Part shown: positions 4,227 to 36,774 of the stretch, piece by piece
Layout: every line of letters starts with the position of its first letter
Position numbering within the stretch: the stretch's first letter is position 1
IMG/VR virus record: IMGVR_UViG_2639762884_000004
Strand: one strand, 5' to 3'
Origin: a virus
Lineage: Duplodnaviria > Heunggongvirae > Uroviricota > Caudoviricetes
Length of the DNA: 36,774 nt
Position numbers and translations under genes: made by a program
The notes under the pieces: generated by a model
The model's database searches: none
What the model was told of the DNA's origin: nothing
Seen by the model: the letters and a program-made list of their open reading frames with translations, nothing else

Positions 4227-4250
4227 GGTCACTCCAAGTGAACTTTTGTC

Positions 4251-6156: not shown

Positions 6157-7010
6157 GCACCATCCTGAAATGGGCGGGTAATAAAACCGCCATTATGCCA
6201 GAACTGAAAAAATACCTTCCTGCTGGCCCGCGACTGGTTGAACCTTTCGCGGGTTCTTGTGCTGTGATGATAGAGACGGATTACCCCAGCTATCTTGTTG
6301 CGGATATTAATCCTGATTTAATCAACCTCTATAAAAAGGTTGCTGCTGATTGCGAGGCGTTTATATCTCGTGCCAGAGCTTTATTTGAGGAAGCAAACAG
6401 GGAGGTGGCTTATTACAACATAAGGCAGGAGTTTAATTACTCCACTGAAATTACTGATTTCATGAAAGCGGTATATTTCCTGTATCTCAATCGTCATGGT
6501 TACCGTGGGTTATGTCGCTATAACAAGAGCGGGCATTTCAACATTCCCTACGGGAATTATAAAAATCCGTATTTCCCTGAAAAAGAAATTCGCAAATTTG
6601 CAGAAAAAGCCCAGCGAGCAACGTTTATCTGCGCCAGCTTTGATGAAACGCTGGCGATGTTGAAGGCGGGGGATGTGGTGTATTGCGATCCGCCTTATGA
6701 CGGTACGTTTTCCGGCTATCACACTGATGGCTTCACTGAGGATGACCAGTATCACCTGGCATCCGTTCTTGAACATCGATCATCTGAAGGTCATCCGGTC
6801 ATTGTTTCTAACAGTGACACATCCCTGATTCGTTCGCTGTATCGCAATTTCACTCACCACTACATCAAGGCAAAACGCAGCATCGGCGTGTCGGCTGGCG
6901 AGAGTAAATCTGCAACAGAAATCATTGCTGTTTCCGGGGCGCGCTGCTGGGTGGGATTTGATCCTTCGCGTGGCGTGGATAGTTCTGCTGTGTACGAGGT
7001 GCGTGTATGA
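6153..7010 (+). CDS. dam: Orphan DNA adenine methyltransferase (Dam-like)
   Basis: 285 aa from ATG 6153; LKWAGNK near the N-terminus, catalytic DPPY (VYCDPPYDG), and [16 protein letters not shown] region, all as in Dam; no adjacent restriction endonuclease. Confidence 0.85.
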
Positions 7011-10198: not shown

Positions 10199-10534
10199 TT
10201 ACGAATGATCATTCTGTTTAGTCTTCATGAGAAAATCCCGAATCTTTGCCAAGTTTGAATTTTCGGGGATTGAATCCATGTACGGATCACGCTCAAACAC
10301 TAATTGCTCAGATTCAACGAAAGCCTGCCACTCTACTGGGTCTAGCTCAAATCCCATTGCTGTCATATCACTTTCATCTTCCCCCTCGATCCAGTGGACT
10401 AAATAAAACAATTCATCATCAGGAGAATCATCCTCACCATCAACAATATCAACATCGGTTACAGTGATACGTAGGGTGGGATCGATTTTTGAGACATAAA
10501 TTCCTAACTGTGGTATAGGGGGAATATTGTTCAT
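10199..10534 (-). CDS. Strongly acidic small protein of unknown function (AT-rich cargo gene)
   Basis: 111 aa, rich in D/E with few basic residues; AAGGAG 7 nt upstream of the ATG; opposite strand to its neighbours. Confidence 0.55.
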   Translation of the reverse strand: MNNIPPIPQLGIYVSKIDPTLRITVTDVDIVDGEDDSPDDELFYLVHWIEGEDESDMTAMGFELDPVEWQAFVESEQLVFERDPYMDSIPENSNLAKIRDFLMKTKQNDHS

Positions 10535-11001: not shown

Positions 11002-11814
11002 ATGGGGCATGCTATGATCTTTCTAAGTCATAATCACCGTGACAAAAGGTTTGTAAGTGTTATAGCGGAAAAACTAGCAGATGTTTATGGGCGTGATAAC
11101 GTATTCTACGATTCTTGGTCTATCCAACCCGGAGAGGGTATTATTGACAAGATGAATTTAGGAATGGAGAATGTATCGTTCTTTTTCTTTTTTGTCACAG
11201 AAAATAGTTTGGCAAGTAACATGGTAAAAATGGAATGGCAAAATGCTTTAATTAAGGCATCGTCCGGGAAGTGTAAATTTATACCAATACGTTGCCAGAA
11301 TATATCCTTGCCTGCTCTGCTTACTCAAACGCTATATATTGATCTTTATTCGTATGGGATCGATGTGGCAATAAGACAAATTATAGATGTCATTAATCAA
11401 CAAAATACGTATATTCCTAATCCTGAGAAGTATTCAAACCTCTCCTATGATATTAAGGATGGTGATGGGGGTAAGATAGTGAAATTATCAGCAATGGATT
11501 TTTTAGAACCAATTGCTGATTTTATGATGATTATGGATAATACAATTAAGCATGATGATGTTGTTGTTATGGTCAATGGAGAAAGCACATTCACTCAGGG
11601 GTTTATTGAAAATGCATCTTTAGAAAATGGTATGAAAGTAAGTGGTGCCACTGTTGGCCTAAATCGGGGGTTAACACCAACGATGCCAATGTATGTTTCT
11701 CTTAGGTTAAAGGATGGTTCACCTTTGAATATATTTGCGGTGCTACATCGAGTAAGTACCGAGCGTTATGCTCCTATACCACATAAAGCCGATGATGCCT
11801 TTAGAGTAAAATAA
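11002..11814 (+). CDS. TIR-domain protein with an uncharacterised C-terminal domain (AT-rich cargo gene)
   Basis: 270 aa (alternative ATG at 11014). N-terminal IFLSHNHRDK followed by NVFYDSWSIQPGEGI and FFFFFVTENSLASNMVKMEW fits a bacterial TIR fold; C-terminal ~140 aa unrecognised. Confidence 0.6.
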   Translation: MGHAMIFLSHNHRDKRFVSVIAEKLADVYGRDNVFYDSWSIQPGEGIIDKMNLGMENVSFFFFFVTENSLASNMVKMEWQNALIKASSGKCKFIPIRCQNISLPALLTQTLYIDLYSYGIDVAIRQIIDVINQQNTYIPNPEKYSNLSYDIKDGDGGKIVKLSAMDFLEPIADFMMIMDNTIKHDDVVVMVNGESTFTQGFIENASLENGMKVSGATVGLNRGLTPTMPMYVSLRLKDGSPLNIFAVLHRVSTERYAPIPHKADDAFRVK

Positions 11815-22498: not shown

Positions 22499-23096
22499 TC
22501 TGCTGCCACCGGGTTCAACTTCACTGGAGCGCCGACTGGCGCAAACCTGTAGCGGGATTTCTGATTTGCAGGTGCCGCTGCGTGACTTGTGGAATCCGGC
22601 TACCTGTCCGGTCAGCTTCCTGCCTTATCTCGCCTGGGCGTTCTCTGTGGATCGCTGGGACGAGGGCTGGACAGAAAGCGTCAAACGCCAGGTAGTGAAG
22701 GATGCTTTTTATATTCATCAGCATAAAGGAACCACTAGTGCCGTGCGGCGAGTGGTGGAACCGTTCGGATTCCTGATCCGCATTATTGAGTGGTGGCAGA
22801 CCGGAGAAACACCGGGCACGTTTCGCCTGGATATCGGCGTGCAGGACCAGGGCATCACTGAAGATACCTATCTGGAACTTGAGCGACTGATAAGCGATGC
22901 CAAACCATGTAGCCGCCACATGATCGGCATGTCCATCAATCTGCAGACCAGCGGCCCGCATTGGGTGGGAGCCGCCAGCTATCTTGGCGAAGAAATCACG
23001 ATCTATCCGTATATCAACGAAACGATTATTTCCGGTGGCACCGCGCATGAAGGCGGGGCGGTCCATGTTATTGACACAATGAGAGTGAATCCATGA
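22491..23096 (+). CDS. I: Baseplate/tail protein I (P2 gpI-like)
   Basis: 201 aa; N-terminal LLPPGSTSLERRLA resembles gpI. Confidence 0.75.
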   Translation: MNSLLPPGSTSLERRLAQTCSGISDLQVPLRDLWNPATCPVSFLPYLAWAFSVDRWDEGWTESVKRQVVKDAFYIHQHKGTTSAVRRVVEPFGFLIRIIEWWQTGETPGTFRLDIGVQDQGITEDTYLELERLISDAKPCSRHMIGMSINLQTSGPHWVGAASYLGEEITIYPYINETIISGGTAHEGGAVHVIDTMRVNP

Positions 23097-24613
23097 GCAC
23101 AAAATTTTATACCCTGCTGACGGATATTGGCGCGGCGAAACTTGCCAGCGCCGCCGCGCTCGGTGTGCCGATAAAAATTACCCATATGGCGGTGGGCGAT
23201 GGCGGTGGAGTATTGCCAACGCCGGACGCAAAGCAGACGGCACTGGTAAATGAGAAACGCCGGGCTGCGCTGAATATGCTTTATATCGACCCGCAGAACA
23301 GCAGCCAGATTATTGCCGAACAGGTGATCCCTGAAAACGAGGGCGGTTGGTGGATACGTGAAGTGGGCTTGTTTGATGAGTCCGGGGCATTGATTGCCGT
23401 GGGCAACTGCCCGGAAAGCTATAAGCCGCAACTGGCTGAAGGTAGCGGGCGCACTCAGACCGTGCGCATGGTGCTGATTACCAGCAGCACGGACAATATC
23501 ACCCTGAAAATCGACCCTGCTGTAGTGCTGGCAACCCGCAAGTATGTGGATGACAAGGCACTGGAGCTGAAGGTGTACGCGGATGATCAGATGGCAAAAC
23601 ATCTTGCCGCACCGGACCCGCATTCACAGTACGCGCCAAAAGCCAGCCCGACATTTACCGGAACCCCCAAAGCGCCAACGCCAGCGGCGGGGAATAATAC
23701 CACGCAGGTTGCGACCACTGCGTTTGTACAGGCGGCACTGACGGCCCTTATTAATGGTGCGCCAGCCACGCTGGACACGCTGAAAGAAATAGCCGCAGCC
23801 ATTAACAATGATCCGAATTTCAGTACCACCATTAACAATGCGCTGGCACTAAAAGCACCGTTGTCGAGTCCGGCACTCACCGGAACGCCAACAGCCCCCA
23901 CGGCGGCGCAGTCGGTCAACAATACACAGATTGCCACTACGGCTTTTGTGAAATCGGCGATTGCAGGAATGGTGGGTTCTGCACCTGCTGCACTGGATAC
24001 ACTGAACGAACTGGCGGCGGCACTGGGGAATGATCCGAACTTTGCCACGACAATGCTTAATGCGCTGGCAGGTAAACAACCGCTGGACAATACGCTTACC
24101 AATTTGAGTGGAAAGGATGTAGCTGGTCTTCTCACATATCTTGGTTTGGGAGAAGGTTCGGCATTACCCGTTGGTGTGCCTGTTCCGTGGCCTTCCGCCA
24201 CTCCGCCAACAGGCTGGCTGAAATGCAACGGTGCGGCATTTTCTGCTGAAGAATACCCGGAACTGGCAAAGGCTTACCCGACAAATAAATTGCCTGATTT
24301 ACGCGGTGAGTTTATTCGTGGCTGGGATGACGGGAGAGGCATTGACCCCGGAAGGATTCTATTGGCTTCACAGGAGCATGCAATGCAAAACGTCACTGGT
24401 TCAATAGGGAAAATTCAGCTTTTTAAAGATTTAGTTACCAGTGGTCCATTTCGTCATAACGGTAATAACTATCTGACTTCTGGATTAACAGTGGTTACAG
24501 GCACAGGGCATGGTGTCACAACATTTGATTTCGATATGTCAAGGGTGGCAAATACCGCCAATGAAACTCGCCCGGTGAACGTTGCATTTAACTACATTGT
24601 GAGGGCTGCATAA
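23093..24613 (+). CDS. H: Tail fibre protein H: conserved N-terminal part plus variable C-terminal receptor-binding part (current orientation)
   Basis: 506 aa; N-terminus MSTKFYTLLTDIGAAKLA is P2 H-like; C-terminal part carries a phage-fibre-type motif (PPTGWLKCNGAAFSAEEYPELAKAY...LPDLRGEFIRGWDDGRG). Confidence 0.85.
   Translation: MSTKFYTLLTDIGAAKLASAAALGVPIKITHMAVGDGGGVLPTPDAKQTALVNEKRRAALNMLYIDPQNSSQIIAEQVIPENEGGWWIREVGLFDESGALIAVGNCPESYKPQLAEGSGRTQTVRMVLITSSTDNITLKIDPAVVLATRKYVDDKALELKVYADDQMAKHLAAPDPHSQYAPKASPTFTGTPKAPTPAAGNNTTQVATTAFVQAALTALINGAPATLDTLKEIAAAINNDPNFSTTINNALALKAPLSSPALTGTPTAPTAAQSVNNTQIATTAFVKSAIAGMVGSAPAALDTLNELAAALGNDPNFATTMLNALAGKQPLDNTLTNLSGKDVAGLLTYLGLGEGSALPVGVPVPWPSATPPTGWLKCNGAAFSAEEYPELAKAYPTNKLPDLRGEFIRGWDDGRGIDPGRILLASQEHAMQNVTGSIGKIQLFKDLVTSGPFRHNGNNYLTSGLTVVTGTGHGVTTFDFDMSRVANTANETRPVNVAFNYIVRAA
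24129..24154. repeat. Candidate invertase crossover site (hix/gix-like 26-bp site) inside H
   Basis: TTCTCACATATC-TT-GGTTTGGGAGAA; the 14-bp TTGGTTTGGGAGAA recurs in inverted orientation at 25995-26008 and encodes LGLGE in both H and H'. Confidence 0.65.
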
Positions 24614-25215
24614 TGGATAACGCTGTATTAAATAGCGAGTTTATTGCTACGAAGGCAGGGGATATTACTGTTTATAACTATGATGGTGAAACTCGGGAAT
24701 ATATTTCCACTTCAAGTGAATATCTTGCCGTTGGTGTTGGTATCCCGGCATATTCCTGCCTGGATGCACCTGGTATACATAGGGAGGGTTATGTTATCTG
24801 CCGTTCTGTAGATTTTAACTCATGGGGATATGTGCCAGACCATCGTGGTGAAACGGTCTATAGCACTGAAACAGGAGAATCAAAAGAAATCACAGCTCCG
24901 GGTGATTACCCTGAAAATACAACCACTATCGCCCCTTTATCTCCATACGATAAATGGGATGGTGAGAAATGGGTGACAGATACCGAGGCACAGCATAGCG
25001 CCGCAGTAGACGCGGCAGAAGCACAGCGTCAGTCACTGATTGATGCTGCAATGGTTTCCATTAGTCTGATTCAGTTGAAATTGCAGGCCGGGCGGAAGCT
25101 GACGCAGGCAGAAACCACCCGGCTTAACGCTGTGCTGGATTATATTGACGCGTTGACGGCAACAGATACCAGCACCGCGCCGGATGTCATCTGGCCTGAA
25201 CTGCCGGAGGCGTAG
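24613..25215 (+). CDS. G: Tail fibre assembly chaperone G (current orientation)
   Basis: 200 aa; conserved C-terminal tail LDYIDALTATDTSTAPDVIWPELPEA. Confidence 0.8.
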   Translation: MDNAVLNSEFIATKAGDITVYNYDGETREYISTSSEYLAVGVGIPAYSCLDAPGIHREGYVICRSVDFNSWGYVPDHRGETVYSTETGESKEITAPGDYPENTTTIAPLSPYDKWDGEKWVTDTEAQHSAAVDAAEAQRQSLIDAAMVSISLIQLKLQAGRKLTQAETTRLNAVLDYIDALTATDTSTAPDVIWPELPEA

Positions 25216-25618
25216 GCCATTCAATATCTGGCGCACCGGAAGTATCAACCAGTTCCAGTGCGTCCAGATAATCCAGCCACAAATTATATTGCGCCAGTTC
25301 GTCACCTTTCAGACGACCAATAGCGGCTTTACCGGGCCATTGTTTACTGTTCATGTATTCGTTGGCCTGGTTAATTAGTAGCTGTCTTTCTGATTGAGTA
25401 ATTTCAATAAGCTCTTCATGCGTTGGAGGCGGCGCATCGACCCAAGCGGGCAGTCCAGTGCTATCTGCACCAAGCATTTTACCTTCAGGCCAGGCAATAC
25501 CAGCAAATTGGTTGTAGAGGTTAACACTGATTTCAATAGCTGATTCAGGAATAAACCTGCTTTCAGGTTCAATATAAAATCCGTTATCAACGGCGTCATA
25601 AAAGTATCTTGTTTTCAT
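25187..25618 (-). CDS. Alternative tail fibre assembly chaperone (G'), in the invertible segment
   Basis: 143 aa; C-terminal WLDYLDALELVDTSGAPDIEWPTPP parallels the C-terminus of G; convergent with G. Confidence 0.75.
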   Translation of the reverse strand: MKTRYFYDAVDNGFYIEPESRFIPESAIEISVNLYNQFAGIAWPEGKMLGADSTGLPAWVDAPPPTHEELIEITQSERQLLINQANEYMNSKQWPGKAAIGRLKGDELAQYNLWLDYLDALELVDTSGAPDIEWPTPPAVQAR

Positions 25619-25619
25619 G

Positions 25620-26036
25620 TTAATAACCTATTGCGAATAAAGAACCGGCAGCTGAAGTACCCACCCATGAAGTCCCATTAGTTGTTCTTAAAACACGAAC
25701 TTTGACTGTCGTTCTGGTAGAGCCACCAATATCGAAGCCCCACGTTGTGCCGGCCGATCCATTCCACGAGCTAGCAGAAGCACCTGAGTCAATCGCAGTG
25801 GCATGAAACAGAGCGTTAGGAAATGCCATAGGTAATGTCACGGTTGCTACTCCAGTCGAATCGGAAAGAAATCCAGAGACCCACTGGAAAATGATATTTT
25901 GTTCAACCCCACCAATTAAACCCGGGATCAATATTCTCCCGGTATTACCCGTTACCCCTACAGCAGCGCCAAGTTTTGCCGCTTCTCCCAAACCAACGTT
26001 TAAGAAAATGCAGAGGTAACAGCTAACTGGCATCAT
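25620..26036 (-). CDS. Alternative tail fibre C-terminal cassette (H'), promoterless until inversion
   Basis: 138-aa ORF containing the crossover-site peptide LGLGE near its N-terminus; Gly/Thr/Ser-rich fibre-like C-terminus. Confidence 0.65.
   Translation of the reverse strand: MMPVSCYLCIFLNVGLGEAAKLGAAVGVTGNTGRILIPGLIGGVEQNIIFQWVSGFLSDSTGVATVTLPMAFPNALFHATAIDSGASASSWNGSAGTTWGFDIGGSTRTTVKVRVLRTTNGTSWVGTSAAGSLFAIGY
25983..26008. repeat. Candidate invertase crossover site (hix/gix-like) next to the invertase gene
   Basis: TTCTCCCAAACC-AA-CGTTTAAGAAAA; quasi-palindromic half-sites resembling the hix/gix consensus as I recall it (TTATCAAAAACC-AA-GGTTTTTGATAA). Confidence 0.65.
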
Positions 26037-26057
26037 CTCCGGTTTTTATTCAGGGGG

Positions 26058-26630
26058 ATGATCATGCTTATTGGCTATGTACGCGTGTCAACAAATGACC
26101 AGAACACCGATTTGCAACGTAATGCACTGAACTGCGCGGGATGTGAGCGGATTTTTGAGGACAAAATCAGTGGCACTAAGTCCGACAGACCGGGGCTGAA
26201 AAAACTACTCAGGACACTATCGGCAGGAGACACGCTGGTTGTCTGGAAGCTGGACAGGTTGGGGCGCAGTATGCGGCATCTTGTTACGCTGATAGAAGAG
26301 TTGCGCCAGCGTGGTGTGAATTTCAGAAGCCTGACTGACAGTATTGATACCAGTACCCCAATGGGCCGTTTCTTTTTTCATGTCATGGGTGCCCTGGCTG
26401 AAATGGAACGCGAACTGATAGTTGAACGTACCAGGGCAGGGCTGGCTGCAGCTCGTGCCAAAGGCAGAGTAGGTGGACGCCGTCCTAAGTTGACCACCGA
26501 ACAGTGGGCACAGATTGGGCGTTTACTCGAGGCCGGAGAATCAAGACAGCGTATTGCACAGATTTTTGATGTAGGCGTTTCTACCATTTATAGAAAATTT
26601 CCGGCAAATAAGATCAATGAATCCCCCTGA
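26058..26630 (+). CDS. Serine DNA invertase (Hin/Gin/Pin/Cin family)
   Basis: 190 aa; N-terminal catalytic region LIGYVRVSTNDQNTDLQ and C-terminal HTH; sits in the P2 Z/fun position between G and FI. Confidence 0.9.
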   Translation: MIMLIGYVRVSTNDQNTDLQRNALNCAGCERIFEDKISGTKSDRPGLKKLLRTLSAGDTLVVWKLDRLGRSMRHLVTLIEELRQRGVNFRSLTDSIDTSTPMGRFFFHVMGALAEMERELIVERTRAGLAAARAKGRVGGRRPKLTTEQWAQIGRLLEAGESRQRIAQIFDVGVSTIYRKFPANKINESP

Positions 26631-26678
26631 ATCAGCATTATGTTGATTATCCCTGCAAGCAGACAAATACCGTTATTT

Positions 26679-26696
26679 TGTGTGAATAACGACACA
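26679..26696 (+). promoter_or_regulatory. Ogr-type late-promoter dyad TGT-N12-ACA upstream of FI
   Basis: TGTGTGAATAACGACACA, centre about 85 nt upstream of the FI start. Confidence 0.55.
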
Positions 26697-26772
26697 ACTG
26701 CGCTTAGCTGTTTGTCAGGCACAATCACTTCAACATAGGGCGAAGCCTAATCCAATCAGGAGGTTCGCCACT

Positions 26773-27945
26773 ATGGCTCAGGATTACCACCACGGGGTGC
26801 GCGTTGTTGAAGTCAACGAAGGCACCCGATCTATTACCACGGTGAGCACCGCCATCGTGGGTATGGTCTGCACGGGCGATGATGCCGATGCAAAAATGTT
26901 TCCTCTTAATAAACCCGTGCTGATCACTGATGTGCTGACTGCCAGCGGTAAAGCGGGTGAGTCCGGTACTCTGGCCCGTTCGCTGGATGCCATCGCTGAC
27001 CAGGCAAAACCCGTGACCATTGTTGTGCGTGTGCCGCAGGGTGAAACGGAAGACGAAACCACGACCAATATCATCGGCGCAGTGACTGCTGAAGGTAAAA
27101 AAACAGGTATGAAAGCCCTGTTATCTGCCCAGTCACAGCTCGGCGTTAAACCGCGCATTCTCGGCGTGCCAGGCCACGACACCAAGGCGGTAGCTACTGA
27201 GTTGCTGAGCGTGGCGCAAAGCCTGCGTGGATTTGCTTACCTGTCAGCGTATGGCTGCAAGACAGTGCAGGAGGCGATCACTTACCGCGAAAACTTCAGC
27301 CAGCGCGAAGGGATGCTGATCTGGCCTGACTTTACTGGCTGGGACACGGTGCTGAATGCCGAAGCAACGGCATATGCCACCGCCCGTGCGCTTGGTCTGC
27401 GCGCCAAAATTGACGAGCAGACCGGATGGCACAAAAGCCTGTCCAACGTGGGCGTGAACGGTGTCACCGGAATTTCTGCAGATGTGTTCTGGGATCTGCA
27501 GGACCCGGCAACCGATGCAGGTCTGCTGAACCAGAACGACGTCACCACGCTTGTGCGTAAAGACGGTTTCCGCTTCTGGGGTTCCCGCTGCCTGAGTGAT
27601 GACCCGCTCTTTGCCTTCGAAAACTACACCCGCACGGCGCAGGTGCTGATGGACACGATGGCAGAAGCACACATGTGGGCGGTGGATAAACCGCTTAACC
27701 CGTCGCTGGCCCGCGACATTATCGAAGGTATCCGCGCCAAAATGCGCAGCCTGGTCAGTCAGGGCTATCTCATTGGTGGTGATTGCTGGCTGGATGAATC
27801 GGTGAACGACAAAGACACGCTGAAAGCCGGAAAACTCACCATCGACTACGACTACACGCCAGTGCCGCCACTTGAAAACCTGATGCTGCGTCAGCGCATC
27901 ACCGATCAGTACCTGGTGAATTTCGCCAGCCAGGTCAGCGCGTAA
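26773..27945 (+). CDS. FI: Contractile tail sheath protein (P2 FI-like)
   Basis: 390 aa, matching P2 FI in size and position. Confidence 0.85.
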
Positions 27946-27954
27946 GGGGACAAC

Positions 27955-28470
27955 ATGGCTTTACCACGCAAATTAAAACACCTGAACCTGTTTAACGACG
28001 GGAACAACTGGCAGGGGATCGTTGAGTCGCTGACGCTGCCGAAATTTACCCGCAAATATGAGAAGTATCGCGGCGGCGGAATGCCGGGTGCGGTGGATGT
28101 GGATCTGGGGCTTGATGACAGTGCGCTGGACACAGAATTTTCCATTGGTGGTACTGAATTGCTGCTGTTTAAACAGATGGGTAAAGCCACGGTGGATGGC
28201 ATCCAGCTGCGCTTTACCGGCTCTATTCAGCGTGACGATACCGGGGAAGTGCAGGCCGTGGAGCTTGTCGTGCGTGGACGTCACAAAGAAGTGGATTCCG
28301 GCGAGTGGAAGACGGGCGAAAGCAACACCACCAAAGTGACCAGTACCAACAGCTACGCGAAGCTGACCATCAATGGTGAGGTGCTCTATGAAGTGGACCT
28401 TATCAACATGGTGGAAATTGTGGACGGTGTGGACCTGATGGAAGCGCACCGCAACGCCCTCGGCCTCTGA
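27955..28470 (+). CDS. FII: Tail tube protein (P2 FII-like)
   Basis: 171 aa, matching P2 FII in size and position. Confidence 0.85.
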   Translation: MALPRKLKHLNLFNDGNNWQGIVESLTLPKFTRKYEKYRGGGMPGAVDVDLGLDDSALDTEFSIGGTELLLFKQMGKATVDGIQLRFTGSIQRDDTGEVQAVELVVRGRHKEVDSGEWKTGESNTTKVTSTNSYAKLTINGEVLYEVDLINMVEIVDGVDLMEAHRNALGL

Positions 28471-28524
28471 TATATCTGAACGGCGCGGGATACCGCGCCA
28501 GAACCCAATTGACAGGACAGCAAA

Positions 28525-28827
28525 ATGAGCGATAAGCAGACTGAAAAGACCATTCAACTGGATACCCCCATCAAGCGCGGTAAAACAGAAATCACCGAAA
28601 TTGTGCTGCGTAAACCGCAGTCCGGTGCGCTGCGCGGTACACGCCTGCAGGCCATTATGGATATGGATGTAAACGCGATGATGATCGTGATCCCCCGCAT
28701 CTCCAGTCCGGCACTGACTGCACAGGAAATTGCAGAGATGGACCCGGCAGATCTCACTGCCATGTCGGTTGAGGTTGTCACTTTTTTGTTGAAGAAGTCG
28801 GTGCTTGCCGGTTTACCGACAGCCTGA
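28525..28827 (+). CDS. E: Tail assembly chaperone E
   Basis: 100 aa, immediately upstream of the tape measure gene. Confidence 0.7.
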   Translation: MSDKQTEKTIQLDTPIKRGKTEITEIVLRKPQSGALRGTRLQAIMDMDVNAMMIVIPRISSPALTAQEIAEMDPADLTAMSVEVVTFLLKKSVLAGLPTA

Positions 28828-28961
28828 CGGTTGACGATCTGGTGGCAGATATCGCCACCATTTTTCACTGGCCGCCATCCGTTACTGACGTTATGCCGCT
28901 GACCGAAGTGCTGGAATGGCGGTATAAAGCGATTCAGAGAAGCGGGGCCAACGATGAGTGA
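28525..28961 (+). CDS. E+E' fusion made by programmed -1 frameshift at TTTTTTG (28782-28788)
   Basis: Slippery heptamer inside E; the -1 frame stays open to TGA at 28959-28961, overlapping the T start, as in P2 E/E'. Confidence 0.55.
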
Positions 28962-31900
28962 TAACAACCTGCGTCTGCAGGTCATTCTTAATGCGGTTGA
29001 CAAGCTCACCCGCCCATTTCGATCTGCGCAGGCCAGTTCAAGAGAACTGGCTGCTGCTGTCAAAAAATCCCGCGATGCAATAAAGCAGCTTGATCAGGCC
29101 GGGAGCAGTCTGGACAGCTTCCGAAAGCTGCAGGCAGAAAATCAGAAATTAGGCGACAGGCTGAACTATGCCCGCCAGCGTGCAAATTTGCTCAGTCAGG
29201 AACTGGGAGCGATGGGGCCGCCTTCGCAACGTCAGGTTGTTGCTCTGGGCCGTCAACGGCTGGCTGTTCAGCGCCTGGAAGAACGCCAGAAAAAGCTGCA
29301 GCAGCAGACGGCGCTTGTGCGTGCTGAACTGTACCGGGCGGGAATTTCTGCGAAAGACGATGCGGGAGCAACTGCCCGTTTAGCCCGTGAAACATCACGT
29401 TATAACCAGGAACTTTCGAAACAGGAGGCGCGGCTGAAGCGACTGGGGGAAGCTCAGCGCAGGATGAATGCAGCGCGTGCCAGTTATGCCCGTTCGCTGG
29501 AGGTGCGTGATCGTATTGCAGGTGCCGGAGCCACCACCACGGCTGCAGGGCTGGCAATGGGTGCGCCAGTGATGGCGGCAGTAAAAAGCTATACCAGCAT
29601 GGAAGATGCCATGAAAGGTGTGGCAAAGCAGGTCAATGGTCTGCGTGACGATAATGGCAACCGCACTGCACGTTTTTATGAAATGCAGGATGCCATCAAG
29701 GCTGCCAGCGAACAGTTGCCGATGGAAAACGGTGCGGTGGATTTCGCTGCACTGGTTGAAGGTGGTGCGCGCATGAACGTCGCAAACCCTGACGACAGTT
29801 GGGAAGATCAGAAACGTGACCTGCTGGCCTTCGCCAGTACGGCAGCAAAGGCGGCAACAGCCTTTGAGCTGCCAGCGGATGAACTGTCAGAAAGTCTGGG
29901 GAAAATCGCCCAGCTCTACAAAATCCCCACCCGCAATATTGAACAGCTCGGTGATGCGCTGAACTATCTGGATGATAACGCCATGTCGAAAGGGGCAGAC
30001 ATCATTGATGTGATGCAACGTCTGGGCGGTGTGGCTGACCGTCTGGATTATCGTAAAGCGGCGGCGCTGGGTTCCACCTTCCTGACACTGGGCGCTGCGC
30101 CAGAGGTTGCAGCCAGTGCAGCAAACGCGATGGTGCGTGAATTGTCCATTGCCACCATGCAAAGCAAAAGTTTCTTTGAAGGGATGAATCTGCTGAAACT
30201 CAATCCTGAAGTGATTGAAAAGCAGATGACGAAGGATGCGATGGGAACCATCCAGCGCGTGCTGGAGAAGGTAAACGCGCTGCCGCAGGACAAGCGCCTG
30301 TCTGCCATGACTATGTTGTTTGGTAAAGAGTTTGGCGATGACGCGGCGAAACTGGCAAACAACCTGCCGGAACTGCAGCGTCAGTTAAAACTGACAGCGG
30401 GCAATGATGCGCTCGGCTCCATGCAGAAAGAATCCGACATTAACAAGGATTCACTTTCTGCGCAGTGGTTGCTGGTCAAAACCGGAGCGCAGAACACCTT
30501 CAGCAGCCTGGGCGAAACGCTGCGCCAGCCGCTGATGGATATTCTGTACACGGTGAAAAGCATCACGGGGGCGTTGCGCCGCTGGGTGGAAGCTAACCCG
30601 GAACTGACAGGCACACTGATGAAAGTAGCGGCTGTTGTGGCTGCGGTTACAGTAGGCCTCGGCACCTTAGCGGTGGCGCTGGCTGCAGTGCTGGGGCCGC
30701 TGGCAGTGATCCGTCTGGGATTCTCTGTGCTGGGTATCAAAACGTTACCTTCTGTTACGGCAGCAGTAACTCGAACCAGCAGCGCGTTGTCCTGGTTGGC
30801 TGGCGCACCACTGGCACTGCTGCGACGCGGGCTTGCTTCATCGGGCAACGCCGCAGGTTTACTTACTGCGCCGTTGTCGTCTTTGCGCCGCACCGCATCA
30901 CTGACGGGGAATGTCCTGAAAACTGTAGTAGGTGTGCCGGTTGCACTTTTGCGGTCTGGATTATCCGGTTTACGTGCTGTTGCTGTGATGTTTATGAATC
31001 CTCTGGCGGTACTGCGCGGTGGACTGGTCGCCGCAGGCACGGTGCTGCGAGTACTGGCATCTGGTCCACTGGCGATGCTGCGCGTTGCCCTGTATGCCGT
31101 ATCTGGTCTGTTAGGTGCTCTGCTCAGTCCGATAGGTCTTGTGGTTACTGCACTGGCGGGCGTGGCGCTGGTTGTCTGGAAATACTGGCAACCCATCACC
31201 GCATTTCTTGGTGGCGTGGTGGAAGGATTCAAAGCGGCGGCAGGTCCCGTCAGTGCAGCATTCGAACCGCTTAAGCCCGTGTTCCAGTGGATTGGCGACA
31301 AAGTACAGGCGCTGTGGGGCTGGTTTACTGATCTGCTGACGCCCATTAAGTCGACCTCTGCCGAACTGCAGAGTGCAGCGGCAATGGGGCGGAGATTCGG
31401 GGAGGCACTGGCGGAAGGGCTGAATATGGTCATGCATCCGCTGGACTCCCTGAAATCCGGCGTTTCCTGGTTGCTGGAGAAGCTCGGCATTGTCAGTAAA
31501 GAGGCCGCAAAGGCAAAACTGCCGGAAAGCGTGACGCGTCAGCAACCTGCGACGGTGAATGCAGACGGTAAAGTGATGATTCCATCGGGTGGTTTTCCGT
31601 CATGGGGATATGGCTTTGCGGGGATGTATGACAGCGGCGGCTATATCCCGCGTGGGCAGTTTGGCATCGTCGGTGAAAACGGGCCGGAAATTGTTAACGG
31701 CCCGGCAAATGTGACCAGCCGGAGAAATACAGCTGCACTGGCTGCCATTGTTGCCGGAATGATGGGCGTTGCTGCCGCGCCTGCAGAGCTTTCGCCGTTG
31801 CATCCTTTGGCGCTTCCCGCGAAAGGTGGTGAAGCGATGATGAGTCGCGCAGCCACTGTGCCGCCCGTTCAACGGATTGAGGCACCGACGCAGATCATCA

Positions 31901-32031
31901 TCCAGACGCAGCCAGGACAAAGTGCACAGGATATTGCGCGGGAGGTGGCACGCCAGCTTGATGAACGTGAACGCAGGCTGAAGGCAAAAGCCAGGAGTAA
32001 CTACAGCGATCAGGGGGGATACGACGCATGA
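28954..32031 (+). CDS. T: Tail tape measure protein (P2 gpT-like)
   Basis: 1025 aa, coiled-coil-rich N-terminus, Gly/Ala-rich hydrophobic middle; follows E/E'. Confidence 0.85.
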   Translation: MSDNNLRLQVILNAVDKLTRPFRSAQASSRELAAAVKKSRDAIKQLDQAGSSLDSFRKLQAENQKLGDRLNYARQRANLLSQELGAMGPPSQRQVVALGRQRLAVQRLEERQKKLQQQTALVRAELYRAGISAKDDAGATARLARETSRYNQELSKQEARLKRLGEAQRRMNAARASYARSLEVRDRIAGAGATTTAAGLAMGAPVMAAVKSYTSMEDAMKGVAKQVNGLRDDNGNRTARFYEMQDAIKAASEQLPMENGAVDFAALVEGGARMNVANPDDSWEDQKRDLLAFASTAAKAATAFELPADELSESLGKIAQLYKIPTRNIEQLGDALNYLDDNAMSKGADIIDVMQRLGGVADRLDYRKAAALGSTFLTLGAAPEVAASAANAMVRELSIATMQSKSFFEGMNLLKLNPEVIEKQMTKDAMGTIQRVLEKVNALPQDKRLSAMTMLFGKEFGDDAAKLANNLPELQRQLKLTAGNDALGSMQKESDINKDSLSAQWLLVKTGAQNTFSSLGETLRQPLMDILYTVKSITGALRRWVEANPELTGTLMKVAAVVAAVTVGLGTLAVALAAVLGPLAVIRLGFSVLGIKTLPSVTAAVTRTSSALSWLAGAPLALLRRGLASSGNAAGLLTAPLSSLRRTASLTGNVLKTVVGVPVALLRSGLSGLRAVAVMFMNPLAVLRGGLVAAGTVLRVLASGPLAMLRVALYAVSGLLGALLSPIGLVVTALAGVALVVWKYWQPITAFLGGVVEGFKAAAGPVSAAFEPLKPVFQWIGDKVQALWGWFTDLLTPIKSTSAELQSAAAMGRRFGEALAEGLNMVMHPLDSLKSGVSWLLEKLGIVSKEAAKAKLPESVTRQQPATVNADGKVMIPSGGFPSWGYGFAGMYDSGGYIPRGQFGIVGENGPEIVNGPANVTSRRNTAALAAIVAGMMGVAAAPAELSPLHPLALPAKGGEAMMSRAATVPPVQRIEAPTQIIIQTQPGQSAQDIAREVARQLDERERRLKAKARSNYSDQGGYDA

Positions 32032-32513
32032 TGATGGTGCTGGGATTGTACGTGTTTATGCTGCGCACCGTTCCGTATCAGGAACTGCAGTATCAACGCA
32101 GCTGGCGACATGCGGCAAACAGCCGGGTAAACCGACGTCCGTCCACGCAGTTTCTGGGACCGGACAACGACATGCTGACGCTTTCTGGTGTTCTTATGCC
32201 GGAGATAACGGGCGGCAGGCTGTCGTTGCTGGCTCTGGAGCAGATGGCAGAACAGGGAAAAGCATGGCCCCTGATTGAAGGCAGCGGCACGATTTACGGC
32301 ATGTATGTGATTGAGGGACTGAATCAGACTAAAACGGAGTTTTTCCGCGACGGTATGCCGCGCCGGGTTGAGTTCACCCTGTCGCTCAAACGGGTGGATG
32401 AATCCCTGTCCGATATGTTCGGTGATCTCAGTTCGCAGCTGAATAATCTGCAGGACACGGCAACATCTGCATTAAGCGATATCAGTAAAACGGTGGGAGG
32501 GCTGCTGTCGTGA
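32028..32513 (+). CDS. U: Tail protein U (P2 gpU-like)
   Basis: 161 aa; overlaps the T stop. Confidence 0.75.
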   Translation: MMMVLGLYVFMLRTVPYQELQYQRSWRHAANSRVNRRPSTQFLGPDNDMLTLSGVLMPEITGGRLSLLALEQMAEQGKAWPLIEGSGTIYGMYVIEGLNQTKTEFFRDGMPRRVEFTLSLKRVDESLSDMFGDLSSQLNNLQDTATSALSDISKTVGGLLS

Positions 32514-33610
32514 ATTTCAGCTCTGAACTGCTTAACAAAGGCAATAAAACTCCGGCATTCATCATCAGTATTGAAGGCAAGGATATCACCACTGTGCTGG
32601 ACAACCGCCTGATGGGGCTTACGCTGACGGATAACCGGGGCTTTGAAGCGGACCAGCTTGATCTGGAGCTGGACGACGCCGACGGAAAAATCGTGCTGCC
32701 GCGCCGTGGTGCGGTCATCACGCTGGCGCTGGGCTGGAAGGGGCAGCCGCTTTTCCCGAAAGGGGCATTCACGGTGGATGAAATTGAACACACTGGCGCA
32801 CCGGACCGCCTGACTATCCGGGCGCGAAGTGCTGATTTTCGGGAAACGCTGAATACCCGCCGTGAAAAATCGTGGCACAAGACCACAGTTGGGGAAGTGG
32901 TGAAGGAAATAGCCGCGCGTCACAAGCTGAAGATGGCACTGGGTAAAGACCTGTCAGATAAACCCGTGGAACATATAGACCAGACTAATGAGAGTGACGG
33001 CAGTTTTCTGATGCGGCTGGCGCGCCAGTACGGTGCTATTGCGTCGGTGAAAAATGGCAATCTGTTATTCATCCGGCAGGGACAGGGCAAAAGCGCCAGC
33101 GGTAAACCTCTGCCGGTGATCACTATCACACGCAAGGACGTCGACAGTCACCGATTTACCCTGGCTGATCGCGGTGCCTACACGGGCGTAATTGCCAGCT
33201 GGTTGCATACCCGCGAACCCGCGAAGAAAGAAAGCACCACGGTGAAGCGTAAGCACAGGACCGCAAAGCAGAAGAAAGAGCCGGAAGCTAAGCAGGGCGA
33301 TTACCTGATGGGTACAGATGAAAACGTGCTGGTACTTAATCGCACTTATGCCAACCGGAGCAACGCCGAACGAGCGGCGAAAATGCAGTGGGAACGCCTG
33401 CAACGCGGCGTTGCGTCATTCTCGCTACAACTGGCGGAAGGGCGGGCAGATCTCTACACGGAAATGCCCGTGAAGGTCAGTGGCTTTAAACAGCCGATAG
33501 ATGATGCGGAATGGACCATTACGACTCTGACACATACCGTCAGCCCGGATAACGGTTTTACGACCAGTCTGGAGCTTGAAGTGAGGATTGATGATTTCGA
33601 AATGGAATGA
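32510..33610 (+). CDS. D: Tail protein D (P2 gpD-like)
   Basis: 366 aa; position between U and ogr. Confidence 0.8.
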   Translation: MNFSSELLNKGNKTPAFIISIEGKDITTVLDNRLMGLTLTDNRGFEADQLDLELDDADGKIVLPRRGAVITLALGWKGQPLFPKGAFTVDEIEHTGAPDRLTIRARSADFRETLNTRREKSWHKTTVGEVVKEIAARHKLKMALGKDLSDKPVEHIDQTNESDGSFLMRLARQYGAIASVKNGNLLFIRQGQGKSASGKPLPVITITRKDVDSHRFTLADRGAYTGVIASWLHTREPAKKESTTVKRKHRTAKQKKEPEAKQGDYLMGTDENVLVLNRTYANRSNAERAAKMQWERLQRGVASFSLQLAEGRADLYTEMPVKVSGFKQPIDDAEWTITTLTHTVSPDNGFTTSLELEVRIDDFEME

Positions 33611-33700
33611 TTCTTCGCAATGGAGAGCTTTTAAGTTTGCAAAATGGAATAATACGGTATCATTATTGTGAATTTAGCAAAAATGGGGAGAACTCGAAAA

Positions 33701-33919
33701 ATGATGATTTGCCCACTGTGTGGAAGTGCCGCCCATACTCGCAGCAGTTTTCAGGTATCTTCATTGACCAAAGAGCGTTACAACCAGTGCCAGAACATTA
33801 ACTGCAGCCATACTTTTGTTACCCATGAAACTTTTGTTCGTTCGATTGCAACGCCAAAAGAGTCAAATCCGGTTCAGCCGCATCCAATGAAATCAGGACA
33901 GGTGGCGCTCTCTCTTTGA
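33701..33919 (+). CDS. ogr: Late-gene transcriptional activator, Ogr/Delta zinc-finger family
   Basis: 72 aa from ATG 33701; CPLCGSAAH...CQNINCSHTF four-Cys motif; last phage gene before attR. Confidence 0.85.
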   Translation: MMICPLCGSAAHTRSSFQVSSLTKERYNQCQNINCSHTFVTHETFVRSIATPKESNPVQPHPMKSGQVALSL

Positions 33920-33941
33920 CGCTGCCGCCATTTTGTCGCCA
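33920..33941. repeat. Putative attR core (22-bp direct repeat, copy 2)
   Basis: CGCTGCCGCCATTTTGTCGCCA, starting immediately after the ogr stop codon; 21/22 identical to 19-40. Confidence 0.7.
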
Positions 33942-33999
33942 TCGTTAAAAAACAGTGCTTCTAACATCATGATTTTAAACAGTATAAATTTCAGGCAAC

Positions 34000-34042
34000 A
34001 AAAAACCCATCAACCTTGAACCGAAATGGCGGGGTTGATGGG
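34000..34042 (-). terminator. Rho-independent terminator for host ybjL
   Basis: Stem CCCATCAACC / GGTTGATGGG with an inner loop; on the minus strand it is followed directly by UUUUUUGUUG. Confidence 0.55.
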
Positions 34043-34154
34043 CTCCACAAAATGGGGACATCAAAGAAAAGCAGTGGCACTAATTAAGACTGATGCCCTG
34101 CGGAAAAGTTCTGCGGTTGTGCAAAAAAATTTCATTTTCAGGGCAACTTCAGTT

Positions 34155-35840
34155 TTATCCTAATCCTGGCCATACCATGACGATGATTGTCCCTGCCAGC
34201 GTCAGCAGGACGTTGGCGATTGCGTAGGTGCCCGCATAGCCCAGCGCAGGGATGTTACTGCGAGCTGTATCACTGATGATCTCCATTGCCGGCGCGCAGG
34301 TGCGTGCGCCCATCATTGCGCCGAACAACAGTGCGCGGTTCATTCGCAATACATAAGCACCGAACAAGAAACAGATAACCACGGGCACAAGACTGACAAT
34401 TAATCCGGCAATCAACATCTGACCGCCAATCGCGCCCAGGCCGTTATTAATACCGCTACCGGCGCTCAGACCAACGCCTGCCATAAACACCATCAAGCCG
34501 AACTCTTTCACCATGCTTAATGCACCTTGCGGAATGTAACCGAAGGTCGGGTGGTTAGCACGCATAAAGCCCAGCATAATTCCGGCGAATAACAACCCGG
34601 CAGCGTTCCCCATGCCGAAACTGAATGTGCTGAACTGGAAGGTGATCATCCCGATCATCAGCCCAATAACAAAGAAGGCGCAAAATGCCAGCAGGTCAGT
34701 GACCTGGCTGTGAATCGAGATAAAGCCGATGCGATCGGCGATGGTTTTTACGCGACGGGCATCACCGCTGACTTGTAAAACGTCACCTTTGTTAAGCACG
34801 ACGTTGTCATCTATCGGCATCTCAATCTGGCTACGAATGACGCGGTTAAGGAAGCAACCGTGATCGGTCAACTTCAGTTGTGCGAGACGTTTACCTACAG
34901 CGTTATGGTTTTTAACGACCACTTCTTCAGTGACGATACGCATGTCGAGAAGGTCACGATCGAAAACTTCTTTACCGTTACGGAAGCTGGGATCGAGTCG
35001 GGCATGGGCGTCGGGATAGCCTACCAACGCTATTTCATCGCCCATTTGTAGCACGGCATCACCGTCTGGATTTGCCAGAATCCCGTTACGTCGAATACGT
35101 TCAATGTAGCAGCCGGTTTGTCGATAAATACCCAGTTCACGCAGATTTTTGCCGTCGGTCCAGGCCACCAGCTCCGGGCCGACGCGATAGGCGCGGATCA
35201 CCGGTAAATAAACCTTACGGTTGGCATCAGTGTCCAGGCCACGTTCGCGGGCGATTTGCTGGGCGCTGGTCTGTAAGTCCTGATGCTGCAATTTCGGCAA
35301 GTAACGCGCACCAACAATCAAACTCACCAGACCGATTAAATAGGTTAAGGCATACCCGAGGCTCAGATTATCCAGTGCCAGTGAGAGCTGCCTGCTTTCC
35401 ATGCCGAAATGACGCAGTGTATCGCCAGCACCGACCAGAACCGGTGTCGACGTCATAGAGCCTGCTAACATACCGGCCGTCAGGCCAATATCCCAGCCAA
35501 ACAGCTTACCTAACCCTAAGGCGATCACCAGCGCACTGCCAACCATCACCAGTGCTAACATTAGGTAATTTTTCCCATCGCGAAAAAAAATGGAAAAAAA
35601 GTTCGGTCCGGCTTCGACCCCGACGCAGAAAATAAACAGCATAAAGCCAAGATTAAGCGCATCGGTGTTAATGCTGAAATGTTGTTGGCCTAATAACAGC
35701 GATACGACTAAAACGCCAATGGAATTACCCAGTTGGATCGAACCAAGTCGTAACTTTCCGAGACATAGCCCAAGCGCGAGGACCACAAATAATAACAGAA
35801 TGTAATTCCCATTTAACAATTCGGCGACGTTTATATTCAC
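34155..35840 (-). CDS. ybjL: Putative transport protein YbjL (AspT/YidE/YbjL family)
   Basis: 561 aa, multi-pass membrane protein with a central soluble region; recognised as E. coli YbjL by size and sequence character, and by the ybjM/grxA neighbours. Confidence 0.75.
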
Positions 35841-36109
35841 GGAGGCTAACTTCTTGTTTACTAGTAAGCTGTTGAAAGAAATGGTAATTTACGATAATGT
35901 TTTTTACCAGAATTCAGGGCGCAGATTCATTCAGCGCACCTAAACGATAGTAAAGTAACAATATATTTTACTAGTGTAATCACATTAGGTATCAACGGCT
36001 ATATGAATTGCGTTGGCCTATATTAGCATGGAATGCGAAGCGGCTTTATCTTACTGAACGCCACACTGGCGAAAAATGTGTTCGATAGACGCAGTGTCAG
36101 GAGGAACGA

Positions 36110-36487
36110 GTGAAACATAAACAACGTTGGGCGGGGGCAATCTGCTGTTTTGTCCTCTTCATTGTGGTGTGCCTTTTTCTGGCGACGCACATGAAAGGCG
36201 CTTTTCGGGCTGCCGGGCATCCTGAAATCGGCTTGCTATTTTTCATTCTTCCTGGAGCAGTTGCCAGTTTCTTTTCACAGCGTAGAGAAGTCCTGAAACC
36301 TCTATTTGGCGCAATGCTGGCGGCACCCTGTTCAATGCTCATTATGCGGCTGTTTTTTTCACCGACGCGCTCATTCTGGCAAGAGCTGGCATGGTTACTA
36401 AGCGCGGTGTTCTGGTGTGCGCTGGGGGCACTGTGTTTCTTATTTATCAGTAGTTTGTTTAAACCACAGCACAGAAAAAATCAGTAA
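36110..36487 (+). CDS. ybjM: Inner membrane protein YbjM
   Basis: 125 aa, four hydrophobic segments; lies between ybjL and grxA as in E. coli. Confidence 0.7.
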   Translation: MKHKQRWAGAICCFVLFIVVCLFLATHMKGAFRAAGHPEIGLLFFILPGAVASFFSQRREVLKPLFGAMLAAPCSMLIMRLFFSPTRSFWQELAWLLSAVFWCALGALCFLFISSLFKPQHRKNQ

Positions 36488-36507
36488 AGCCCTCAACGCG
36501 AGGGCTT
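36487..36507. terminator. Hairpin between convergent ybjM and grxA
   Basis: AAGCCCTC-aacgc-GAGGGCTT; a U-tract exists on the minus strand but is not directly adjacent to the stem. Confidence 0.4.
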
Positions 36508-36516
36508 GTCAGACGA

Positions 36517-36774
36517 TCAGGCGTCCAGATTTTCTTTCACCCATGCAGCAAAATCGGTATAGCCGCCGATATGTTGCTGATCGACAAAAATCTGCGGCAC
36601 GGTTTCTACGGGTTTACCTGCCTTTTGTTGTAGATCTTCTTTAGTGATCCCTTCCGCACGAATATCTACATACTGATACTGAAAATCATCGCGTTCATTG
36701 CTCAATTTCTCAGCCAGATCTTTTGCACGCACACAGTAAGGGCAACCCGAACGACCAAAAATAACGGTTTGCAT
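36517..36774 (-). CDS. grxA: Glutaredoxin 1
   Basis: 85 aa; active-site CPYC in MQTVIFGRSGCPYCVRAKDL; start codon is at the last bases of the window. Confidence 0.9.
   Translation of the reverse strand: MQTVIFGRSGCPYCVRAKDLAEKLSNERDDFQYQYVDIRAEGITKEDLQQKAGKPVETVPQIFVDQQHIGGYTDFAAWVKENLDA

Follow-up and report, generated by a model that had tools for sequence, protein, structure and literature searches.

A probable Pin-type inversion switch of the tail fibre in a P2-like prophage of Escherichia coli

Systems in which DNA inversion exchanges the C-terminus of a phage tail fibre have been known since the 1980s, the e14 P segment, Mu G and P1 C being representatives of the type. Among these, the P segment of e14 in E. 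coli K-12 (stfP-tfaP-tfaE-stfE'-pinE) has an inverted repeat, TTGGTTTGGGAGAAGG, that is the same as that of the locus described here and has been flipped experimentally (PMC12529663). For P2-like prophages of EPEC E2348/69, and also for e14, sequencing and PCR have documented inversion between two variants (Goldberg et al. 2014, PMC4272514); from their description, the EPEC loci resemble ours in having, next to the tail-fibre genes, an invertase homologous to Hin. The Z/fun hotspot of P2 has been noted as a place for invertases as well (bioRxiv 10.1101/2024.10.15.618418), and Fin of Fels-2 appears, as cited in PMC12529663, as an invertible tail-fibre locus of a P2-like prophage. The type of switch is thus already known, inversion in P2-like prophages and invertases at Z/fun are already published, and the locus reported here contains no new biology.

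The window, by which we mean the whole 36,774-nucleotide stretch of DNA analysed, belongs to a P2-like prophage of E. coli that looks intact and is integrated beside ybjL. All P2 structural and lysis genes are present in the prophage, and the P2-type late genes of the window follow the order V-W-J-I-H-G...invertase-FI-FII-E-T-U-D-ogr. In P2, G is followed by fun(Z) and then by FI; here the switch locus occupies the slot between G and FI, in agreement with an earlier note on this DNA that had assigned it to the P2 Z/fun position. We posit, with high confidence, that the locus is a Pin-type (Din-family) site-specific inversion switch of the tail fibre.

Two 26-bp crossover sites of the pix/gix type flank the segment. 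The left site (24129-24154; TTCTCACATATC TT GGTTTGGGAGAA) lies within H, with its central dinucleotide TT at 24141-24142, and the right site (25983-26008; TTCTCCCAAACC AA CGTTTAAGAAAA) has its central AA at 25995-25996. Both are imperfectly palindromic and alignable to gix, cix and pix; they stand inverted relative to each other with matching central dinucleotides, and 20 of the 26 bases agree between the left site and the reverse complement of the right. The perfect inverted repeat extends over 15 bp (24141-24155 and 25982-25996), 14 of which fall inside the 26-bp sites. Searching the 36.8-kb window with a hix/gix/cix-style consensus, TTNTCNNAAACCNNGGTTTNNGANAA, at up to 3 mismatches returned the two crossover sites only, against none in 100 shuffles, and the exact inner half-site TTCTCCCAAACC, which in the left site is the same as that of e14, occurs in two copies in the window, both at the crossover sites. 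The inverted pair of hix/gix-like sites that the earlier note had placed here is therefore borne out, as is its figure of about 1.85 kb for the flanked DNA: from crossover centre to crossover centre, the invertible segment (24141-25996) measures 1856 bp. The outer half of the left site, TTCTCACATATC, is degenerate: at positions 9 and 11 it lacks bases that vary little or not at all among 12 reference half-sites. This departure could reduce the rate of flipping.

In the orientation of the window, the tail-fibre gene H (23093-24613, + strand) encodes an isoform of 506 aa, divided at the crossover into a constant part (23093-24140) and a variable, collar-type C-terminus (24141-24613). Pfam recognizes a Phage_tail_fib N-terminus (E=7.5e-65) and a Collar domain (E=3.8e-15) in this open reading frame; residues 1-354 share 50% identity with P2 H and the variable part 58% with e14 StfE, and PDB sequence matches point to fibre tips of the T4 gp12/gp37 type. 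The start codon of G (24613-25215, + strand), a TfaE-like tail-fibre assembly chaperone of 200 aa (Caudo_TAP, E=1.1e-32; 91% identity to e14 TfaE), overlaps the H stop by 1 nt. Facing it is the alternative chaperone G' (25187-25618, - strand; 143 aa), which is TfaP-like (Caudo_TAP, E=6.7e-29; 48% identity to e14 TfaP). The alternative fibre C-terminus H' (about 25620-25997, within an ORF at 25620-26036, - strand) is gp53-like (Gp53-like_C, E=2.2e-9) and, as the window stands, constitutes an orphan 138-aa ORF with a short leader drawn from the invertase side. It shares 51% identity with the C-terminus of StfP, and when the H' tip was searched against PDB sequences no meaningful match, and hence no solved homologue by sequence, came up. 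Each strand thus carries one Caudo_TAP gene, starting no more than 2 nt from the stop of its own fibre C-terminus, and the two convergent chaperone genes overlap by 29 bp at their 3' ends, while the two tips are different folds by Pfam, Collar versus Gp53-like_C. The gene content expected from the earlier note, namely the H C-terminus, G, G' and an opposite-strand H' between the sites, is what the ORFs and Pfam domains reveal.

Comparison with e14 extends to most of these features. Layout and order are the same, the core inverted repeat TTGGTTTGGGAGAAG is shared, the right sites are identical at 25 of 26 bases, and the convergent tfa genes overlap by the same 29 bp; module by module, identity to e14 is highest for G/TfaE and the invertase (83.5%) and lower for the variable part of H against StfE, for H' against the StfP C-terminus and for G' against TfaP, in the values given above. 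The left outer half-sites differ at 5 of 12 bases, and the H' tip and the N-terminal part of G' represent divergent alleles. Moreover, the lambdoid e14 is a defective remnant whose fibre protein StfP is truncated, at 209 aa, whereas the window holds a complete P2-like prophage whose H has a P2-type N-terminus.

Flipping the segment in silico yields an in-frame H::H' fusion of 474 aa, and this is exactly the protein annotated in E. coli SOI121, so that the proposed joining of the N-terminal part of H to the alternative tip holds both in silico and in a natural genome. The earlier note had further proposed that a shared 14-bp core encodes LGLGE in both H and H'. This is only partly correct: GLGE is common to the two, but the repeat is 15 bp long and un-inverted H' reads VGLGE, the L being supplied by the H side after inversion. 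In public sequence data, the exact 506-aa isoform occurs on 17 contigs and the 474-aa isoform on 11, and the exact 138-aa orphan ORF is annotated on 16.

Public genomes contain the locus in both orientations, which was the observation that the earlier note had put forward as its check. Over positions 3093-36774 of the window, the SOI121 genome matches at 100% identity, the one difference being the opposite direction of 24141-25996, itself with 0 mismatches, and CP055713.1 carries the window orientation at 100% identity over 9.5 kb. Both junction types meet on one short-read contig, UCVD01000022.1, which has the native left junction and, past the right repeat, a flipped junction identical to the prediction at 152 of 152 positions. 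The breakpoints of the natural inversion fall inside the 15-bp repeat. Among complete E. coli genomes, 118 show the window orientation and 87 the flipped one, as counted with P2-specific probes of 1377 bp. These replaced 300-bp junction probes, whose counts (422 native versus 937 flipped genomes) we discarded because they mix element types, K-12 e14 itself matching the flipped-right probe at 298 of 300 positions. The full flipped junction, detected by the flipped-left probe, occurs in 1 of 5426 complete E. coli genomes, SOI121, a count that reflects a rare H' allele, from which relatives diverge 9 bp past the repeat, rather than rare flipping. Homology among related phages stops exactly at the crossover site, which fits a role of crossover sites as boundaries for the swapping of receptor-binding cassettes.

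Directly downstream, as the earlier note had also remarked, lies an intact gene for a serine DNA invertase of the Pin/Gin/Cin/Hin family (26064-26630, + strand; 188 aa; Pfam Resolvase, E=1.4e-53, and HTH_7, E=1e-15), which starts 55 bp beyond the right site. Its product shares 83.5% identity with PinE, 76.6% with Cin, 71.0% with Gin and about 66% with a Hin sequence; it aligns without gaps over 145 residues to Gin, Cin and Pin, and over residues 1-184 it matches the sequences of the Gin structures 3uj3 and 4m6f (E~1e-91). The catalytic serine motif YVRVSTNDQ is intact, and the N-terminus, MLIGYVRVSTNDQ, is that of PinE and, apart from Gin's first residue, that of Gin. The 5' end of the gene contains a predicted Fis-dependent recombinational enhancer (26082-26153) that aligns without gaps to the annotated enhancer of P1 cin, at gene positions 19-90. 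A Fis-consensus 15-mer, GNNYRNNWNNYRNNC, at 26134-26148 (gene positions 71-85) is kept in the window, pin, cin and gin; the predicted enhancer is also coding sequence, and a synonymous-site test over the four genes was no more than suggestive at 5/19 versus 7/75 (p=0.06). Fis dependence of the inversion is a prediction from this alignment. In a simple scan of 23900-26900 for promoters and terminators, promoter-like sites were fewer than in shuffled sequence, and neither the invertase nor the orphan ORF had one; for the invertase this concerned a sigma-70-like promoter. Separately, a 12-bp perfect inverted repeat flanking the invertase (26048-26059 and 26621-26632) was considered as a cassette boundary and rejected, since chance alone should produce roughly one repeat of this kind per 6 kb and a second one of the same length exists.

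We suggest the following mechanism. The serine invertase would bind both inverted 26-bp sites, make 2-bp staggered cuts at the central TT/AA (24141-2 and 25995-6) and rotate the 1856-bp segment, probably with the assistance of a Fis-bound enhancer at the 5' end of its own gene. In the window orientation, the first 349 residues of H, which are constant, would lead into the collar-type receptor-binding C-terminus, with chaperone G next; in the other, the same constant part would continue in frame into the gp53-like C-terminus, whose own chaperone, G', would come after it. The virions released by a lysogen population would then carry one or the other fibre tip and would presumably fall into two host ranges, and we infer that a change of host range is what inversion brings about. 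The neighbouring invertase is the probable enzyme of this reaction. Pin-family invertases cross-react, however (PMC12529663), and a paralogue elsewhere in the genome could therefore be responsible.

A different reading would make the flip an orientation-dependent anti-phage device that chiefly benefits the host or lysogen, the orphan ORF (25620-26036, - strand) giving a small StfE2-like adsorption blocker. The idea derives from the e14 P segment, where StfE2 has been reported to block adsorption of other phages and where the inverted repeat is the same as ours (PMC12529663). The layout of StfE2, a short hydrophobic leader followed by a gp53-like domain, is matched by the orphan ORF, with 49% identity over 90 aa to the reconstructed protein, and the exact 138-aa ORF recurs in annotation on those 16 contigs. 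Conservation of the leader is nevertheless accounted for by the crossover site that it overlaps and a short spacer, the - strand upstream of the ORF has no promoter-like site by the simple scan (in which shuffles gave more sites), and a PADLOC search of the ORF returned no match. The StfE2 claim comes from one study that used over-expression and docking, and in a prophage that looks complete, with every P2 structural and lysis gene, a role in the virion suffices. We therefore consider a defence device improbable, and give an equally small chance to the combined case, in which one flip would govern superinfection defence as well as the host range of virions, in a P2-like prophage that is active and not a cryptic remnant. 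Orientation also determines which of the orphan ORFs is turned towards the invertase, in the window the 138-aa StfE2-like one; if the combined case were true, this protein, expressed in the lysogen, could block adsorption of unrelated phages.

Two orientations might also arise with no active switch at all, through rare RecA-dependent or illegitimate recombination at the 15-bp repeat or through the choice of an assembler, the invertase being inert on these sites; the degenerate left outer half-site could favour such inertness. Yet 15 bp is shorter than is usually needed for efficient RecA recombination, and the breakpoints fall at complete 26-bp sites of the invertase type, with matching central dinucleotides. 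The enzyme itself is intact and closely similar to the active PinE, and the near-equal abundance of the two orientations in related prophages also speaks against rare events. A 15-bp repeat is, moreover, too short to mislead a k-mer assembler in the absence of real junction reads, which makes the single contig with both junctions hard to attribute to assembly, and in e14 the same repeat flips at about 1:1 (PMC4272514). An origin of this kind, with an inert invertase, is on these grounds very unlikely. Even less probable is a shufflon-like system with multiple sites and three or more fibre alternatives, resembling Min of p15B or the three-repeat P2-like locus of EPEC. Multi-site loci do occur in P2-like prophages (PMC4272514), but the consensus and exact half-site searches found no additional crossover site in the 36.8-kb window, and the locus has just two fibre C-termini and two chaperones. 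A two-state Pin-type switch of the tail fibre thus remains the reading that we prefer.

The practical consequences are modest and the locus is an ordinary one. Automatic annotation labels its two states 'phage tail-collar fiber domain-containing protein' on the one hand and 'phage tail protein' or 'gp53-like domain-containing protein' on the other, and never marks the segment as invertible; with the states under different protein labels, pan-genome and prophage comparisons count one locus as two. Invertible segments of this kind can also yield odd or chimeric short-read contigs, UCVD01000022.1 being an example.

Set against the wider family, the locus has much in common with Salmonella Hin and its H segment, which share the invertase family, 26-bp sites and a Fis enhancer (predicted in the window). 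Hin, however, inverts a promoter and is encoded within the very segment that it flips, whereas in the window the crossover lies within an ORF and swaps C-termini, and the invertase lies outside. The Mu G/Gin and P1 C/Cin systems are nearer in design: a constant N-terminus is joined to one of two inverted C-termini, each with its Tfa, and 26-bp sites, an adjacent invertase and an enhancer in the invertase 5' end are features of these systems as of the design proposed here. Their segments, at about 3 kb for Mu G and about 4.2 kb for P1 C, are larger than that of the window, and they have other central dinucleotides and half-sites. The C-termini S and S' of the Mu and P1 fibres are unrelated to those of the window, giving no BLASTP matches, and P1 S has only an 80%-identical stretch in common with the constant part of H. 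The earlier note had called the locus the Mu G-segment design; the design is indeed shared, but by its sites, its modules and its invertase the locus is most closely related to the e14 P segment with PinE.

The observation of an invertible segment at 24141-25996 (1856 bp) is confirmed: identical DNA occurs naturally in both orientations, with breakpoints at the crossover sites, and the locus combines these sites with an intact invertase and two alternative fibres that stay in frame, a separate chaperone accompanying each. The two 26-bp sites lie where the earlier note had placed them, at 24129-24154 on the left (TTCTCACATATC TT GGTTTGGGAGAA, central dinucleotide TT) and 25983-26008 on the right (TTCTCCCAAACC AA CGTTTAAGAAAA, central dinucleotide AA), and they agree at 20 of 26 positions when aligned in inverted orientation. 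Common to the two is a perfect 15-bp repeat (24141-24155 and 25982-25996); their inner half-sites are identical (TTCTCCCAAACC), and their outer half-sites are degenerate. Alignment to the hix/gix/cix-style consensus, a check that the earlier note had proposed, yielded matches with up to three mismatches at these two positions only in the 36.8-kb window (none in 100 shuffles), and the exact inner half-site is likewise confined to them, against an expectation of 0.25 occurrences. A chance origin of the sites is thus unlikely. Neither search found a third crossover site in the 36.8-kb window, which rules out a shufflon and indicates a simple two-state switch. The left outer half-site TTCTCACATATC (24129-24140) carries T at positions 9 and 11; among 12 reference half-sites taken from e14, Mu and P1, the base is A in 11 at the former position and C in all 12 at the latter; the segment evidently flips despite these deviations.

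The tail-fibre gene H (23093-24613, +) encodes a 506-aa protein with a P2-type fibre N-terminus and a Collar domain, and its stop shares one nucleotide with the start of the Caudo_TAP chaperone gene G (24613-25215, +). On the opposite strand lie a second Caudo_TAP chaperone gene, G' (25187-25618, -), and the alternative Gp53-like_C fibre tip H' (25620 to about 25997, -), now part of an orphan 138-aa ORF reaching 26036. As previously claimed, a Hin/Gin-family invertase gene follows immediately, 55 bp past the right site (26064-26630, +; 188 aa, Resolvase plus HTH_7), with its N-terminal catalytic motif YVRVSTNDQ intact. The tail sheath gene FI starts at 26773 (+); since fun(Z) occupies the interval from G to FI in P2 itself, the Z/fun position assigned to the locus is correct. 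A 100%-identical public copy is annotated as a complete P2-type prophage, integrase through ogr, inserted beside ybjL. The convergent genes G and G' share 29 bp where their 3' ends meet (25187-25215), and an inverted repeat (25134-25151/25260-25277) falls within the 3', C-terminal coding parts of both. A perfect 12-bp inverted repeat flanking the invertase gene (26048-26059, ATTCAGGGGGAT; 26621-26632, ATCCCCCTGAAT) is probably meaningless, as chance should produce about one such repeat per 6 kb.

The crossover falls in H codon 350, within CTT GGT TTG GGA GAA (LGLGE), and the orphan ORF at the right site reads GTT GGT TTG GGA GAA (VGLGE); the claim that both fibres encode LGLGE therefore holds for H but is slightly off for H'. 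The predicted in-frame fusion stands: when the strands are exchanged in silico at the central dinucleotides, the result is an open 474-aa H::H' fibre without interruption, after which G' starts following a single nucleotide.

Both orientations, which the earlier note had suggested seeking, are found in public DNA. When the segment was flipped in silico and the product compared with complete E. coli genomes, E. coli SOI121 (NZ_AP035757.1) matched in a single piece with 100% identity and 100% query coverage, against a best match of only 96.8% for the native arrangement in the same collection. Comparison of the window with the fetched SOI121 stretch revealed 3093-24155 collinear, 24141-25996 inverted and 25982-36774 collinear, each with no mismatches; these block boundaries place the breakpoints within the 15-bp repeat, as predicted, and the 474-aa fibre is present in the SOI121 annotation. 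The complete chromosome CP055713.1 carries the native orientation with 100% identity, and exact isoforms in public protein collections number 17 contigs for the 506-aa form and 11 for the 474-aa form. The short-read contig UCVD01000022.1 contains both junctions: it traverses the whole segment in native orientation and, past the right repeat, continues into 102 bp of reverse-complemented H constant region (6890-6991), the junction stretch matching the predicted flipped junction at 152/152 positions. Since a repeat of only 15 bp would not mislead a k-mer assembler, reads across the flipped junction were probably present in that same sample. What NCBI labels 'partial gp53-like protein' at the contig end is in fact the C-terminus of the 474-aa fusion. 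The exact DNA is thus already public in both orientations, and the invertible tail-fibre interpretation is supported.

Short junction probes for counting orientations were dropped as confounded, since K-12 e14 matches one of them. Replacement 1377-bp probes, requiring P2-specific flanks and the whole collar module, gave 118 complete E. coli genomes with the native orientation and 87 with the flipped one, roughly the expectation for a freely switching segment. The full flipped-left junction occurs only in SOI121 among the complete E. coli genomes; relatives depart from the H' allele 9 bp beyond the repeat, and this allele is rare.

By analogy with the well-studied family, the invertase would cut the central dinucleotide with a 2-bp stagger and its subunits would then rotate, in a reaction presumably dependent on a Fis enhancer; H and its chaperone would be expressed from the P2 late operon, and host range may change with orientation. 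The invertase gene aligns gap-free with the Cin enhancer region annotated in the P1 record (gene positions 19-90), and a 15-mer at positions 71-85 fitting the Fis consensus (GNNYRNNWNNYRNNC) is conserved in 4/4 genes compared. As this region is coding sequence, we tested synonymous conservation across four genes: the share of identical codons (5/19 within the putative enhancer, 7/75 outside; p=0.06) is no more than suggestive.

Systems of this type have been published before, including examples in P2-like prophages. Sequencing and PCR of single-colony cultures revealed that the two e14 orientations reach a ratio of about 1:1, and that EPEC E2348/69 carries invertible fibre loci in two P2-like prophages, one two-state and the other with three repeats (Goldberg et al. 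2014, PMC4272514); for the P2 Z/fun hotspot, a 2024 preprint describes DNA invertases whose neighbouring genes are inverted (10.1101/2024.10.15.618418). The 15-bp repeat of the window lies within the reported e14 repeat TTGGTTTGGGAGAAGG, which PinE, PinQ and PinR each flip (Kirigo et al. 2025, PMC12529663); because the family cross-reacts, another Pin-family enzyme may act here instead of the adjacent invertase. The same study claims that chimeric StfE2, a short leader joined to a gp53-like C-terminus, blocks T2 adsorption (PMC12529663). The orphan ORF shares this architecture and is 49% identical over 90 aa to reconstructed StfE2, but with no promoter-like site seen upstream and no PADLOC match, an additional role as such a blocker has a low probability.

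Elsewhere in the window, a 505-aa KAP-family P-loop NTPase (1140-2657, -), encoded between the integrase (1-1053, -) and CI repressor genes, has its best PADLOC match in the candidate defence family PDC-S20 (E=4.7e-77), with weaker matches to PifA and QatA, and is probably anti-phage cargo. A 266-aa TIR-domain protein (11014-11814, +; Pfam TIR_2, E=1.2e-22; weak PADLOC TIR-NLR and PDC-S66 matches) is encoded beside the portal gene, at the hotspot called 'old/tin' in P2, with an unannotatable 111-aa ORF upstream (10199-10534, -). The CI-type repressor genes are in tandem (2683-3606 and 3657-4232, both -); the 307-aa one, with two Phage_CI_repr HTH domain copies and a single C-terminal domain, is an immunity repressor that has been internally duplicated or fused.

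The constant part of H is mosaic: identity to P2 H is just 50% over the first 354 residues of the fibre, and residues 181-340 (23633-24112) share 80% protein identity with residues 253-412 of P1 tail fibre S. Klebsiella phages (Kp4860-7 and relatives) match the left 24 kb at 95.4%, homology stopping exactly at 24154, the left site's last base; the crossover site resembles a boundary at which phages infecting different hosts exchange receptor-binding cassettes. The invertase shares 83.5% identity with PinE of e14, 76.6% with Cin, 71.0% with Gin, whose structures it matches at E~1e-91, and about 66% with a Hin sequence. The design is that of the Mu G segment, as the earlier note had it, but Mu S, S', U and U' have no BLASTP match among the window's proteins and e14 is closer. 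There the core repeat is the same, the right site differs at 1/26 bases, and the modules correspond one to one (G to TfaE, 91% identity; the variable part of H to StfE, 58%; G' to TfaP, 48%; H' to the StfP C-terminus, 51%), with tfaP and tfaE overlapping by the same 29 bp (2518-2546 of the e14 sequence compared). The e14 Pin/P segment is accordingly the closest relative, and the locus is a P2-type H gene onto which a P-segment/Pin system has been grafted.
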